Positions 6,622-10,111 are shown, numbered from the stretch's first letter. The stretch is DNA of 64,000 nucleotides from Alphaproteobacteria bacterium (GCA_965228895.1 OZ245842.1:3872001-3936000); one strand, 5' to 3'. Program-made: numbers and translations. Notes: generated by a model not told the origin, from the sequence alone.

Positions 6622-7539
6622 ATGAATTGGGATGATCTGAAGATCCTGGATGCGGTTGCGGCGACGCGGAGCCTCTCAGCAGCCGCCAGAAAGCTCGGAT
6701 TCAGCCAGCCCAAGCTGTCGCGGCGCCTGCGCGCGCTTGAGGATACGGTCGGCGCGCGCCTGTTCGACCGCCTGCCCACGGGCTTGGCACCAACGCCGGC
6801 GGGCGAACGGCTGATCCCGCTGGTCGCCGAGATGGCGGTCGCCGCCGAAGCGGTCGAGCGCCAGGCCCCGTCGCTGCCGGAAGCCGCCACCGGAACGGTC
6901 AGGATTTCGGCGCTCGAGACCCTGTGCGTGTTCCTGGGCGAACATATGGATGAGCTGTGCGATATCGCGCCCGGCCTATCGTTCGAACTGATTACCAACC
7001 ATGCGGACGTCAGCCTGTCGCGGCGCGAGGCCGACCTTCTGATCCGGGCCTGCCTGCCCGATGGCGCCAGTCTGGTGTCGCGCCGTATCGCCGATCTGGC
7101 CTACGCGGTCTATGGCACCCATGACTATGTCTCGCGCCACCCTTCGGCGCAGTCGGACGCGATGTTCAGCGATTGCGCCTGGGTCGGCTTTGCCGAGGAT
7201 CGTCTCTTCTTTCCCGGCGCCAAGCGCTGGCTGGATGAACGCACAGACCGTGCGCCCCTGGTGCAGGTGACCGAGATCGGGTCGGCCCATGCCGCCGTCC
7301 GGTCCGGTATCGGCCTCGGCGTCCTGCCCTGCGTCACCGGCGACGCCGACCACGATCTCGTACGGCTGAGTGAGCCCATTCCGGAACTGATGGACAAACT
7401 GCATTTGCTGATACATCGCGACGTCCTGCGCGAACCGGCGGTCCGAACCGCGACCGACGCGCTCGCCACGGTCTTCAAACGTCATCGTTCGGTGCTGATG
7501 AGCGAGCTGGCGGAGAAGGCCCGCGTTCAAGCAGCCTAA
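6622..7539 (+). CDS. LysR family transcriptional regulator
   Basis: [54 protein letters not shown]; start trimmed to ATG 6622. Confidence 0.92.
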
Positions 7540-8642
7540 CAGGTGAGAACACCCCGCTCGACCTGATCGCGCTCGATGGATTCGAAGAGCGCGCGGAAAT
7601 TGCCTTCGCCGAACCCTTCATCGCCCTTGCGCTGAATGATCTCGAAGAAGATCGGGCCGATGACAGTCTTGGTGAAGATTTGCAACAAGACACCGCCGCC
7701 CGGCGAACCGTCGACAAGAATGCCGTGGCGCGCCAGGGCCTCGATATCTTCCGCGTGGCCCGGCAGACGCTCATCGGTCATGGCGTAATAGGTCTCCGGC
7801 GGCGGCGCCATGAAGTCGGTGCCGGCCGCTTCAAGCGCCTTCACCGTCGCGACGATATCGTCGGTGGCAAGAGCGATGTGCTGAATGCCCTCGCCGTGAT
7901 AGGCCTTGAGATATTCCTCGATCTGGCTCTTGTCGTCAGCGCTTTCGTTGATCGGGATGCGGATCTTGCCGCACGGGCTCGTCATCGCCTTGGATTTCAG
8001 CCCCGTCAGCTTGCCTTCGATGTCGAAGTAGCGGAGTTCGCGGAAGTTGAAGAGCCGCTCATAGAAGCCCGCCCAGTCGTCCATGCGGCCGCGGTGTACG
8101 TTATGGGTCAGGTGATCGACGCCGGCGAGACCGACACCTTTTGGCGCCCATACCGGATCGAGCGAGGCGCCGTCGATCGGCACGAAGTCGATGTCATAGA
8201 TCGACCCCTTCAAGCCATAGCGGTCGACCAGATAAATCAGGCTGCCGCCGATGCCCTCGATCGCCGGAATGTTGAGCTCCATCGGCCCGATGCGCGAGTC
8301 GACACCGCGCGCGCCCAACTCGATGGCGCGCGCGTAAGCCTTACCCGCATCGGCGACCCGAAGCGCCATGGCACAGGCGCTGGGACCATGAACTCTGGCG
8401 AACGACTGCGCGAAGCTGTCGGGCTCCGCGTTAACGATGAAATTGATGTCGCCCTGGCGCCACAACGTTACGTCCTTCGACCGATGGCGCGCGATGGCGC
8501 GAAAACCCAGTTGTTCGAAGAGCCTGGCAAGCTCGCGCGTATCCGGTGCGGTGTATTCGACAAACTCGAAACCGTTCGTTCCCATCGGGTTTTCGGCCGA
8601 GATACGGCCTGCCAATGCGTCAAAGCCCAGGGATGTGCTCAT
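7536..8642 (-). CDS. hppD: 4-hydroxyphenylpyruvate dioxygenase
   Basis: [61 protein letters not shown]. Confidence 0.97.
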
Positions 8643-9478
8643 GACAACCTCCGCAGCTTGCGGGCTTCTTCGAGACCGTTCCAGAACACCTGCACACCGT
8701 CCAACATCTGGCGCCCGGCGGTGATGAAGCTCTCCTCGTCGAAGTCCAGGGGGCCGAAATAGAGATCCTTCAACTCAGCCATCGTGTGCGCGGCGTGCTG
8801 GTCCTCGATCTTGTCGTGCCAGCGGAAGAAGCCGAGGTTGAGATCGAGGCCGGACCGTACCTTGAAACTTTCAAGACCGGCGATCAGCTGTTTCCAGAAA
8901 CCGGCGGCCGCCCAGTTCTCGACAGCAAAGCCGGCACCGGCGGAGACCGAAAAGTCGTCGCTGCCGTAGAGCCGGATCAACTCGTCGCAGAACGCCAGCG
9001 TCGCGGGCGTGCCGACCGACCGGCGGCCGAGATCGCCAAACCTCAAACCCAGCGGCGCGGCAAAGTGCAGCAGCCATTCGTAGTGGGCGGCGCGGAAACG
9101 GAAGGTGCCGCCATCGACCGTGCCTTCGATGCCGACGATGTCGGGGTCGACATCCTTGTCGGATGCCCCCTGCTTGTCTGTCTGCCGGGCGCGAAAGACG
9201 ACACCCAACTCATTGGCCAGGATCTCCTTGGCGGCCCGCATCTCTTCCACATTGGCCGCGTTGATGACGCGCTGGGTCTGGGCGATCAGAAATTGGTTCG
9301 AGAAGACAGAGAACTGCCGCGTGAAATCGACGACGTCATCGTGGCTCAGCTCGGCACGGGCGAACCACGCGCAATAGCGGTTGTCGGTGATCGCGGGATG
9401 GCTGAACAGTTCCGCCGCAAGGCGGTCCTGAAAAAGATCAAACGACGACACCGCGTTGCCTAAAGCTGCTTGGCTCAT
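8639..9478 (-). CDS. Heme-oxygenase-like diiron oxidase (HDO; CADD/PqqC/TenA fold)
   Basis: [10 protein letters not shown]-terminus; ligand pattern ILANE...AAH...AVE...[16 protein letters not shown]-terminus; ATGA overlap with hppD. Confidence 0.75.
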
Positions 9479-9634
9479 GCTCCCTACACTCCCTTCGGCG
9501 CGGCGCGCGCCGACCAGTTGCCCCTGTGCCTTCCAATATGGGCGCATGACCACGCGAAGTCCTTGCGATGTCTTGGACCTAAGCTCTTAGGTATGCAAAT
9601 ATCGTGCATGGAGTAATCATATCGAGACGATTTC

Positions 9635-10111
9635 ATGCACCCTGTTGACCTCGACCCCTTCGACGTCGCCATCTTGAACGCGCTCCAGGCCAACGCGCGG
9701 ATGTCGAGCGTGGCCATGGCGGATCAGGTCCACCTGTCGTCATCCCAGATCACCCGGCGCCTGAAGCGGCTGGAAGAAACCGGTGTCATCCGCCGTTATG
9801 CCGCATTGCTGGAACCGGCGGCGCTGGGGCTTGGTCTTATGGCCTTCACCAGTGTTTCCCTGGACGTTCAGACCAAGGACACCGCCCATGACTTTCATCA
9901 GGCGATGCTGAAACTGCCGGCGGTGCTGGAGTGTTACTCAACGACCGGCGACGCCGACTTCTTGATCAAGATCGTCAGCCGTGATCTCGCGAGCTTCTCC
10001 GATCTTCTGATGAACGACATCATGCCGCTGCCCCATGTGCGCAACGTGCGTTCCAGCATCGTGCTAAGCGAGTTGAAGAACACGACGACGCTGGAACTGA
10101 ATGACGTCTAG
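9635..10111 (+). CDS. Lrp/AsnC family regulator, divergent from HDO-hppD
   Basis: LDPFDVAILNALQANAR...LKRLEETGVIRRY...ECYSTTGDADFLIKIV. Confidence 0.95.
   Translation: MHPVDLDPFDVAILNALQANARMSSVAMADQVHLSSSQITRRLKRLEETGVIRRYAALLEPAALGLGLMAFTSVSLDVQTKDTAHDFHQAMLKLPAVLECYSTTGDADFLIKIVSRDLASFSDLLMNDIMPLPHVRNVRSSIVLSELKNTTTLELNDV

Follow-up and report, generated by a model that had tools for sequence, protein, structure and literature searches.

A heme-oxygenase-like dimetal protein of homogentisate-pathway operons as a candidate pterin-independent substitute for phenylalanine hydroxylase

Locus organization

The hydroxylation of phenylalanine (Phe) to tyrosine (Tyr) is a textbook metabolic step, and many bacteria that use the homogentisate pathway lack the hydroxylase PhhA. 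To our knowledge, the pterin-dependent PhhA/PAH family is the only enzyme family known for this reaction. Here we describe a locus on a 64,000-nucleotide stretch of DNA from an Alphaproteobacteria bacterium (GCA_965228895.1 OZ245842.1:3872001-3936000; the whole stretch is called the window, and positions are counted from its first letter). In this locus, a gene for a heme-oxygenase-like dimetal (HDO) protein lies directly upstream of hppD, the gene for 4-hydroxyphenylpyruvate dioxygenase (HPPD), and we propose that the HDO protein may take the place of PhhA. The locus comprises the following features:

8639..9478, minus strand: HDO gene, encoding a heme-oxygenase-like dimetal protein of 279 aa
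7536..8642, minus strand: hppD, encoding HPPD of 368 aa (TIGR01263)
8639..8642, minus strand: ATGA stop/start overlap, made up of the hppD ATG (8642-8640) and the HDO TGA (8641-8639)
9479..9634: divergent intergenic region of 156 bp, between the HDO gene and the regulator gene
9635..10111, plus strand: divergent gene for an Lrp/AsnC-family regulator of 158 aa (PF01037, 76 bits; PF13412; PF13404)

Against TIGR01263, whose cut-off is 277, the product of hppD reaches 411.9 bits, the match running over profile positions 2-353 of 353, and against PF14696 it reaches 220 bits; judged by these profiles, 7536..8642 encodes a genuine HPPD at the equivalog level. Its ATG is preceded by GGAGG at 5 nt. The open reading frame (ORF) of the HDO gene spans 8639..9553 on the minus strand, being open upstream as far as a GTG at 9553. 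Translation most likely begins at the ATG at 9478-9476, because a ribosome-binding-type box (GAAGGGAG / AAGGGAG) lies ~11 nt upstream and because the closest public homologue, P0001 (91% identity, 100% query coverage), is also 279 aa long. The original prediction, made from the sequence of the window, had placed the HDO gene upstream of hppD with an ATGA overlap. This is what is seen at 8639..8642, and the overlap suggests that the two genes are translationally coupled. It had also called the divergent gene Lrp, which holds in part: the gene is divergent and its product has the domains of the Lrp/AsnC family, but the score against the Lrp equivalog NF008370 is 110.5 bits, under the cut-off of 233, and we therefore name it an Lrp/AsnC-family regulator rather than an Lrp orthologue.

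HDO loci in other genomes

The HDO protein has 4882 homologues at E<=1e-3 in a large protein collection, their names nearly all absent or 'hypothetical', and only 404 matches in a library of representatives at 50% identity. Many of the matches derive, by their labels, from marine metagenomes. The homologues in the large collection typically share 55-60% identity between phyla. With identities of 52-60% between phyla in the survey described next, the family is tight and well conserved at the level of sequence. We surveyed 39 HDO loci, one genome per species, and called ORFs in high-GC loci with a caller filtered on GC at the third codon position (GC3). An HPPD gene is present in the same locus in 27/39 cases, or 27/35 when only loci with enough flanking DNA are counted; tblastn at E<=1e-5 picked up 26 of these, and the remaining one (L017) came from a search at E<=1e-3 together with clustering. 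Eight loci have no HPPD despite at least 1.5 kb on either side, and four others end too near the HDO gene. An [A/G]TGA overlap between the HDO stop and the HPPD start recurs in 17 of the 39 loci. Leaving out three genomes marked unpublished (L011, L017, L034), the linkage is 24/36, or 24/32 among informative loci, with 15 overlaps. Given the 4882 homologues and the recurrent overlap, the arrangement in the window is not a chance one.

The same loci recurrently carry genes for a fumarylacetoacetate (FAA) hydrolase, an HmgA-like cupin of 385-388 aa, a class I/II aminotransferase and an Lrp/AsnC regulator, and a regulator homologous to that of the window is divergent from the HDO operon in 20/39 loci (tblastn E<=1e-3). 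The HDO gene is thus a member of homogentisate-pathway operons. In a maximum-likelihood tree of 32 HDO proteins, five well-supported deep clades track taxonomy: Alphaproteobacteria; Acidobacteriota; Krumholzibacteriota/Fibrobacterota (by label); Chloroflexota with Dormibacterota; and Actinomycetota. Linkage to HPPD is present in 5/5 of these clades, and so the conserved HDO-hppD linkage that had been put forward as a check on the original prediction was borne out when that check was run.

Several features of these loci are recorded here in their own right. A short HmgA-like cupin (385-388 aa) replaces canonical HmgA at L002:8919-10076, L012:7960-9114, L026:4809-5975, L055:6299-7462 and in others; the two copies that were scanned (L055 and L026) score 50-63 bits against TIGR01015, for which the cut-off is 510.75, and this cupin may represent a separate kind of homogentisate dioxygenase. 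In L002, the series HDO-HPPD-FAH-HmgA-like (FAH, fumarylacetoacetate hydrolase) is followed by a flavin reductase (L002:10073-10687; PF01613, 97.7 bits) and an AMP-binding enzyme (L002:10688-12379). The HDO of L021, a contig labelled uncultured Burkholderiales, falls inside the Actinomycetota clade and has the gene order of the Acidimicrobiia loci; either mis-binning of the contig or transfer of the operon may account for this. Krumholzibacteriota-type loci have a conserved protein of ~270-330 aa and of no Pfam family, divergent from and upstream of HDO (L003:4910-5905, L004:4934-5752, and equivalents in L008, L009 and L037), and genes nearby encode citrate synthase or aconitase, a multihaem cytochrome and a transglutaminase-like protein.

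Distribution of HDO, HPPD and PhhA

Genomes were profiled with PF00351 for PhhA, TIGR01263 for HPPD and PF01329 for the pterin-recycling protein PCD. Among 37 survey genomes with HDO, HPPD exceeds the TIGR01263 cut-off in 31 and is present as fragmented copies in another 4, and PhhA is found in 0/37. Leaving out the three unpublished genomes, the figures are 29/34 for HPPD over cut-off and 0/34 for PhhA. Three clade samples were profiled in the same way:

Relatives of the window genome: 61 genomes; HPPD in 14, HDO in 3, PhhA in 5 (5 with HPPD), HDO together with PhhA in 0
Acidimicrobiia: 201 genomes; HPPD in 29, HDO in 5, PhhA in 13 (11 with HPPD), HDO together with PhhA in 0
Vicinamibacterales: 151 genomes; HPPD in 58, HDO in 10, PhhA in 29 (29 with HPPD), HDO together with PhhA in 0

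Across these samples HDO depends on HPPD at the level of the whole genome: all 18 genomes with HDO also have HPPD (18/18), set against base rates of 14/61, 29/201 and 58/151. PhhA shows the same dependence, with HPPD in 45/47 of the genomes that carry it. HDO and PhhA, on the other hand, are mutually exclusive. PhhA occurs in 0/18 genomes with HDO versus 45/83 genomes that have HPPD and are free of HDO (5/11, 11/24 and 29/48 in the order of the samples above), and when the distinct genomes are pooled with the survey, 0/50 genomes with HDO carry PhhA. The exact probability of zero overlap is 0.23, 0.072 and 3.8e-4 for the three strata in the same order, and their product is 6.4e-6, a figure that ignores relatedness among genomes. 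The anticorrelation between HDO and phhA, likewise named beforehand as a check, is accordingly what the run returned. PCD exceeds its cut-off in 23/37 genomes with HDO versus 5/5 controls with PhhA, a pattern that fits pterin independence, if weakly.

PhhA in the equivalent operon position

The gene order of PhhA-carrying relatives shows the two proteins in comparable settings. In two Vicinamibacterales genomes with PhhA, the PhhA gene is divergent from HPPD-HmgA-like, and in Vicinamibacterales with HDO, a divergent Lrp/AsnC regulator is followed by HPPD-HmgA-like-HDO. In an Acidimicrobiia genome with PhhA, the series FAH-aminotransferase-HPPD is divergent from PhhA. An alphaproteobacterium of the PhhA type has HPPD-PhhA-HmgA-like-FAH, to be set beside HDO-HPPD-FAH-HmgA-like in the HDO locus L002. 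PhhA lies less than 3 kb from HPPD in further genomes (G011, G112, G160, G196, G209 and G339). The HPPDs of HDO-type and PhhA-type operons are ordinary orthologues, with 58% and 65% identity; the latter value comes from comparing the window HPPD with its counterpart in the PhhA-type operon of another alphaproteobacterium. PhhA and HDO thus look like alternatives within a single type of operon.

In PhhA-type Vicinamibacterales operons, a conserved ORF of 306 aa follows the HmgA-like gene (L055:7444-8364, L056:7557-8477). It occupies the position that HDO holds in HDO-type operons and belongs to no Pfam or NCBIfam family. We considered it as a diverged HDO and rejected this, the hhalign probability being 0.6%; the two proteins are unrelated.

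Fold and metal ligands of the HDO protein

Existing models identify the protein poorly. Pfam PF14518 (Haem_oxygenas_2) scores 17.5 bits (E 0.0037) and does not reach its gathering cut-off of 28.9, and in the same searches neither an NCBIfam model nor PF00351 (Biopterin_H) matched; the homologues P0008 and P0009 bear a precomputed PF14518 match. With PF14518 under cut-off and NCBIfam blank, current models cover the subfamily poorly. A profile of 44 family members searched against PDB returned the 4-aminobenzoate synthase NePabS (9pj4, E 2.6e-5), BesC (7twa, E 3.3e-5) and also a CADD-like protein. Matches to mTERF, from a single-sequence search of PDB sequences, were dismissed as spurious (E about 0.1).

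An AlphaFold2 (AF2) model of the protein has a predicted local distance difference test (pLDDT) score of 92.4 and a predicted TM-score (pTM) of 0.88. Searched with Foldseek, it returns CtCADD (top), BesC, UndA, HrmI and PolF at a probability of 1.00, with TM-scores normalised to the target of <=0.82; PqqC and TenA, cofactor-less relatives of the same fold, are returned as well. VIA-align gives Z-scores of 17-20.5 across about 210-230 aligned residues (HrmI 20.5, BesC 19.9, CADD 19.0-19.1, UndA 18, PolF 18.0), with AetD at 15.4. TenA and PqqC, which are not dimetal proteins, reach similar Z-scores, and HrmI, BesC, FlcD and PqqC tie with CADD. The ESM Atlas yielded only 'hypothetical', TenA and PqqC-like clusters. 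In the model and in both structural comparisons, the protein has the seven-helix heme-oxygenase-like bundle.

The candidate ligands E90, H132, E187, H221, E225 and H228 are retained in 38, 40, 41, 39, 39 and 40 of 44 aligned homologues, respectively, which upholds the CADD-like ligand set read from the sequence at the outset. The pattern is one of three histidines and three carboxylates, with H221-x3-E225-x2-H228 as its last part. In the model, E90 lies at the end of helix 77-91, H132 at the start of helix 132-143, E187 in helix 176-190, and H221, E225 and H228 in helix 216-241. Taken together, the modelled fold and the ligand pattern make the protein a member of the HDO superfamily, and it would be expected to bind two metal ions and to activate O2.

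The first Glu and His are therefore found on two helices with a hairpin between them, not on one helix. The original prediction had pointed to an insertion of ~40 aa at this place. E90 and H132 are separated by 41 residues, and the insert is modelled as a beta hairpin (residues 93-126, with strands 93-96 and 120-126), its tip at low confidence (pLDDT 57 for 101-110 and 64 for 111-120). The spacing between Glu and His is 36-53 in homologues of about 55% identity or more, whereas most of the distant homologues have about 20-23. We conclude that this is a distinct HDO subfamily, in which the first ligand helix is split by a hairpin. A prediction of the complex of HppD with the HDO protein scored 0.00 in two runs, a result that counts neither for nor against binding.

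The genome of the window

The genome that contains the window is a single contig of 5.53 Mb, 98.7% complete, and PhhA (PF00351) was not found in it. A cluster separate from the HDO locus holds a MarR regulator, hmgA (649 bits), fahA (544), a gene of the metallo-beta-lactamase (MBL) fold, an aromatic hydroxylase dependent on flavin adenine dinucleotide (FAD; PRK08132, 706) and maiA (243.5). This cluster lies outside the window, at L054 (G000:C1:667000-680000), with the MBL-fold gene at L054:5964-6914, the hydroxylase at L054:6937-8562 and MarR divergent. The PRK08132 hydroxylase may convert hydroxyphenylacetates to homogentisate. The genome also has PCD and a canonical pabB (384 bits, cut-off 328). 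Among 60 relatives, the only two that carry HDO belong to the same genus as the window genome, and this restriction suggests that the genus acquired it.

Intergenic region and neighbouring genes

The region between the HDO gene and the divergent regulator contains an imperfect palindrome, ATGCA-N7-TGCAT, at 9593-9609, which is conserved in three genomes of the genus and is a candidate operator on sequence grounds. In an alignment with two genomes of the same genus, TGCA.GAT..TTGCA is retained and columns about 79-130 are nearly invariant. The leader of ~100 nt upstream of the HDO ATG (9479-9590, minus strand) is almost invariant in the three genomes, the proteins being about 91% identical; it folds no better than shuffled sequences (z -0.9). 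Otherwise the region has only short inverted repeats. A consensus scan of 7300-10300 found no sigma-70-like promoter, and no Rfam match was found in the window. The divergent Lrp/AsnC regulator would be the one that governs the HDO-hppD operon.

Nothing evident ties the neighbouring genes to the pathway. They include a convergent LysR regulator (6619-7539), an OpuAC-type binding protein and an alpha/beta hydrolase. Further along the window, on the plus strand, tandem paralogues of 313 and 308 aa (12409-13350 and 13368-14294) each have an N-terminal membrane anchor and have in common a C-terminal segment, LALAQAA.ESGWG.SRFAL.GNALFGQWTW.

Proposed role and alternatives

We propose that this distinct HDO subfamily is a non-orthologous, pterin-independent and O2-activating substitute for PhhA that feeds Phe into the homogentisate pathway, and we give this reading a probability of about 0.5. 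Non-orthologous displacement is the simplest account because the protein has a dimetal scaffold, is encoded in homogentisate operons, depends on HPPD as PhhA does and does not co-occur with PhhA. Since the aminotransferase, HPPD, HmgA and FAH are all present in the operons, the conversion of Phe to Tyr is the one classical O2-dependent step that has no other candidate gene. The original prediction, that HDO might replace PhhA, thus finds support in the linkage to hppD and in the lack of PhhA from genomes with HDO; that the protein hydroxylates, and that its substrate is Phe, would follow from this placement. A role of the subfamily in primary aromatic catabolism is strongly indicated but unproven. 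That the protein is an analogue of PhhA in the broad sense is, if anything, slightly favoured by what we see; the precise reaction, Phe to Tyr, which we take as the likeliest one, we hold to more tentatively, at somewhat under even odds.

In the mechanism that we have in mind, the carboxylate/histidine dimetal centre (E90, H132, E187, H221, E225 and H228) would be reduced and would then activate O2, hydroxylating L-phenylalanine on its aromatic ring so that L-tyrosine is formed. An aminotransferase, whether a general one or one encoded in the operon, would convert tyrosine to 4-hydroxyphenylpyruvate, which the co-translated HppD would turn into homogentisate, and HmgA, MaiA and FahA, encoded elsewhere in the genome, would complete the pathway. 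The divergent Lrp/AsnC regulator would probably induce HDO-hppD upon an aromatic amino acid.

A number of points weigh against this proposal. As the genomes with HDO within a clade are close kin, the number of independent comparisons is probably no more than about 5-12, and because most of the genomes are metagenome-assembled genomes (MAGs), the absences of PhhA are soft. HPPD-carrying genomes with neither HDO nor PhhA make up 6/14, 13/29 and 19/58 of the three samples; the step is then optional, and the exclusion could partly reflect lineage history. The PCD gene is still retained in 23/37 genomes with HDO. In the Krumholzibacteriota/Fibrobacterota-labelled clade, the HDO gene is unlinked to HPPD in 8/9 tree rows, and the Krumholzibacteriota-type genomes still encode HPPD elsewhere. 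An electron donor would be needed, and a flavin-reductase gene is part of the operon in only 1/39 loci (L002), where it could serve the HDO protein in this way; in the window, no reductase gene adjoins the HDO gene. The case for a hydroxylase is a computational one throughout. In the excerpted text of a 2026 review of HDOs (PMC13108848), about a dozen validated HDOs carry out N-oxygenation, C-C cleavage, desaturation and rearrangements, and aromatic C-hydroxylation is not among the reactions listed there, so that by this partial account the chemistry that we propose is without precedent in the superfamily. Lastly, the data fit Phe, phenylpyruvate or 2-hydroxyphenylacetate as substrate alike.

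This last point leads to the closest rival to Phe hydroxylation, in which the HDO protein still brings Phe carbon into the homogentisate route but acts after transamination of Phe, on a keto or aryl acid, converting phenylpyruvate to 4-hydroxyphenylpyruvate just ahead of HppD, or 2-hydroxyphenylacetate to homogentisate. HPPD is known to turn phenylpyruvate into 2-hydroxyphenylacetate, the phylogenetic profile and operon evidence fit such a role equally well, and the tight coupling to HppD in 17/39 loci would suit consecutive steps. However, PhhA, whose reaction is not consecutive with that of HPPD, adjoins HPPD just as often, and adjacency therefore does not favour a consecutive step. As far as excerpts of the two papers go, UndA binds a carboxylic acid directly at the metal (PMC13108848) and HamA is described as 2-oxoglutarate-dependent (PMC12522199), both of which would be in keeping with an acid substrate. 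The PRK08132 hydroxylase (706 bits) in the hmgA cluster could already serve hydroxyphenylacetates, and one clade has the HDO gene away from HPPD; we consider a keto or aryl acid substrate unlikely. Another possibility is that the HDO protein feeds some other aromatic into HppD or the homogentisate pathway, for instance a modified tyrosine or an aromatic acid from the environment, with the exclusion of PhhA being ecological or historical. Operon membership and dependence on HPPD agree with this, as do the varied and partly halogenated amino acids taken by characterised HDOs (the substrates of BesC, AetD and SktA, according to paper abstracts) and the many HDO matches labelled as marine. But a separate feeder route should coexist with PhhA, and it does so in 0/50 genomes; identities of 52-60% across phyla suggest a substrate that is common and universal, not a niche compound. 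The exclusion of PhhA does not call for the modified-tyrosine idea, which had been part of the original prediction, and we regard such a feeder as quite unlikely.

The protein might instead make no metabolite at all and act as an accessory or protective factor, scavenging peroxide or quinone by-products, or supplying or repairing Fe(II) for HppD. Co-translation with HppD and strict co-occurrence with HPPD would be expected of such a factor, and there is a parallel in the HDO-like DtpC of Acinetobacter, which, according to the excerpt of PMC13232832, limits oxidative stress and makes no metabolite. Exclusion of PhhA (0/50 vs 45/83) is not predicted by this idea, nor does it explain why most genomes with HPPD do without HDO or why in one clade the HDO gene lies apart from HPPD, which leaves it very unlikely. 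We also weighed a self-sacrificing p-aminobenzoate (pABA) synthase of the CADD/NePabS type, co-expressed with tyrosine catabolism by chance. The best PDB profile match (9pj4, E 2.6e-5) and the top Foldseek match (CtCADD) both belong there, yet HrmI, BesC, FlcD and PqqC tie with CADD by Z-score. Members of that group have an invariant sacrificial Tyr and hosts without pabABC; here Y35, the residue that aligns close to the sacrificial Tyr motif, is a tyrosine in 34 of the 44 homologues and a phenylalanine in 9 (the alignment register is approximate), the window genome has its canonical pabB (384 bits against a cut-off of 328), and we rejected membership. A catabolic operon and exclusion of PhhA would moreover be unexpected of a folate-pathway enzyme, and a pABA synthase is in our view extremely improbable.

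Displacement of PhhA by the HDO protein is thus the reading that we carry forward. In its boldest form, the protein would be the first HDO of central catabolism and the first arene-hydroxylating HDO, a pterin-independent Phe 4-hydroxylase that displaces PhhA in at least five deep lineages (Alphaproteobacteria, Acidobacteriota, Actinomycetota, Chloroflexota/Dormibacterota and Krumholzibacteriota-like) and a third solution beside the pterin-dependent mononuclear iron and the flavin enzymes; we offer this form tentatively, at somewhat under even odds. If the HDO protein does carry out this step, it would supply a missing piece in the metabolic reconstruction of abundant, uncultured lineages from soil and the sea, and would add arene hydroxylation to the chemistry of a superfamily with only about a dozen characterised members. 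A single-gene, pterin-free Phe hydroxylase would also be potentially useful for engineering.

Comparison with known systems

Among the matches listed in our literature search, which lay outside most subscription journals and supplements, HDO is nowhere linked with HPPD or homogentisate, and a pterin-independent Phe hydroxylase does not appear. The nearest functional parallel is PhhA (PF00351) itself, which has the same place in the genome as HDO, the same dependence on HPPD, and often a position adjacent to HPPD or within the homogentisate operon. The two differ in fold and cofactor, which are unrelated: PhhA uses mononuclear iron and tetrahydropterin, whereas the HDO protein is without PF00351, and 14/37 genomes with HDO are without PCD. 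The likeness is one of role only, and the role of HDO is itself a proposed one. CtCADD and NePabS are the best profile and Foldseek matches, have the same pattern of three histidines and three carboxylates and are also tied to tyrosine chemistry, but identity is about 14-15%, and the spacing of the first Glu and His is about 7 residues in the NePabS alignment versus 41 in the window HDO, where the hairpin insert intervenes.

For the proposed chemistry, the ferritin-like toluene/phenol monooxygenases are a useful comparison, as a carboxylate-bridged diiron centre there hydroxylates aromatic rings with O2 and two electrons. These enzymes differ in having a four-helix ferritin-like fold and in being multicomponent systems with a reductase and an effector, and no such partner genes adjoin HDO. 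DtpC of Acinetobacter baumannii resembles the window protein in being HDO-like, in standing outside secondary metabolism and in a function that depends on the ligand residues; going by its description in the excerpt of PMC13232832, it is set apart by a role in desiccation and peroxide stress and not in aromatic catabolism. HrmI, BesC, PolF and AetD, which are among the top structural matches, are diiron O2 activators on free amino acids. They perform N-oxygenation, fragmentation, and ring or nitrile formation in biosynthetic clusters, as the excerpted text of PMC13108848 has it, whereas the HDO family of the window belongs to an operon of primary catabolism, and arene hydroxylation is the reaction proposed for it.

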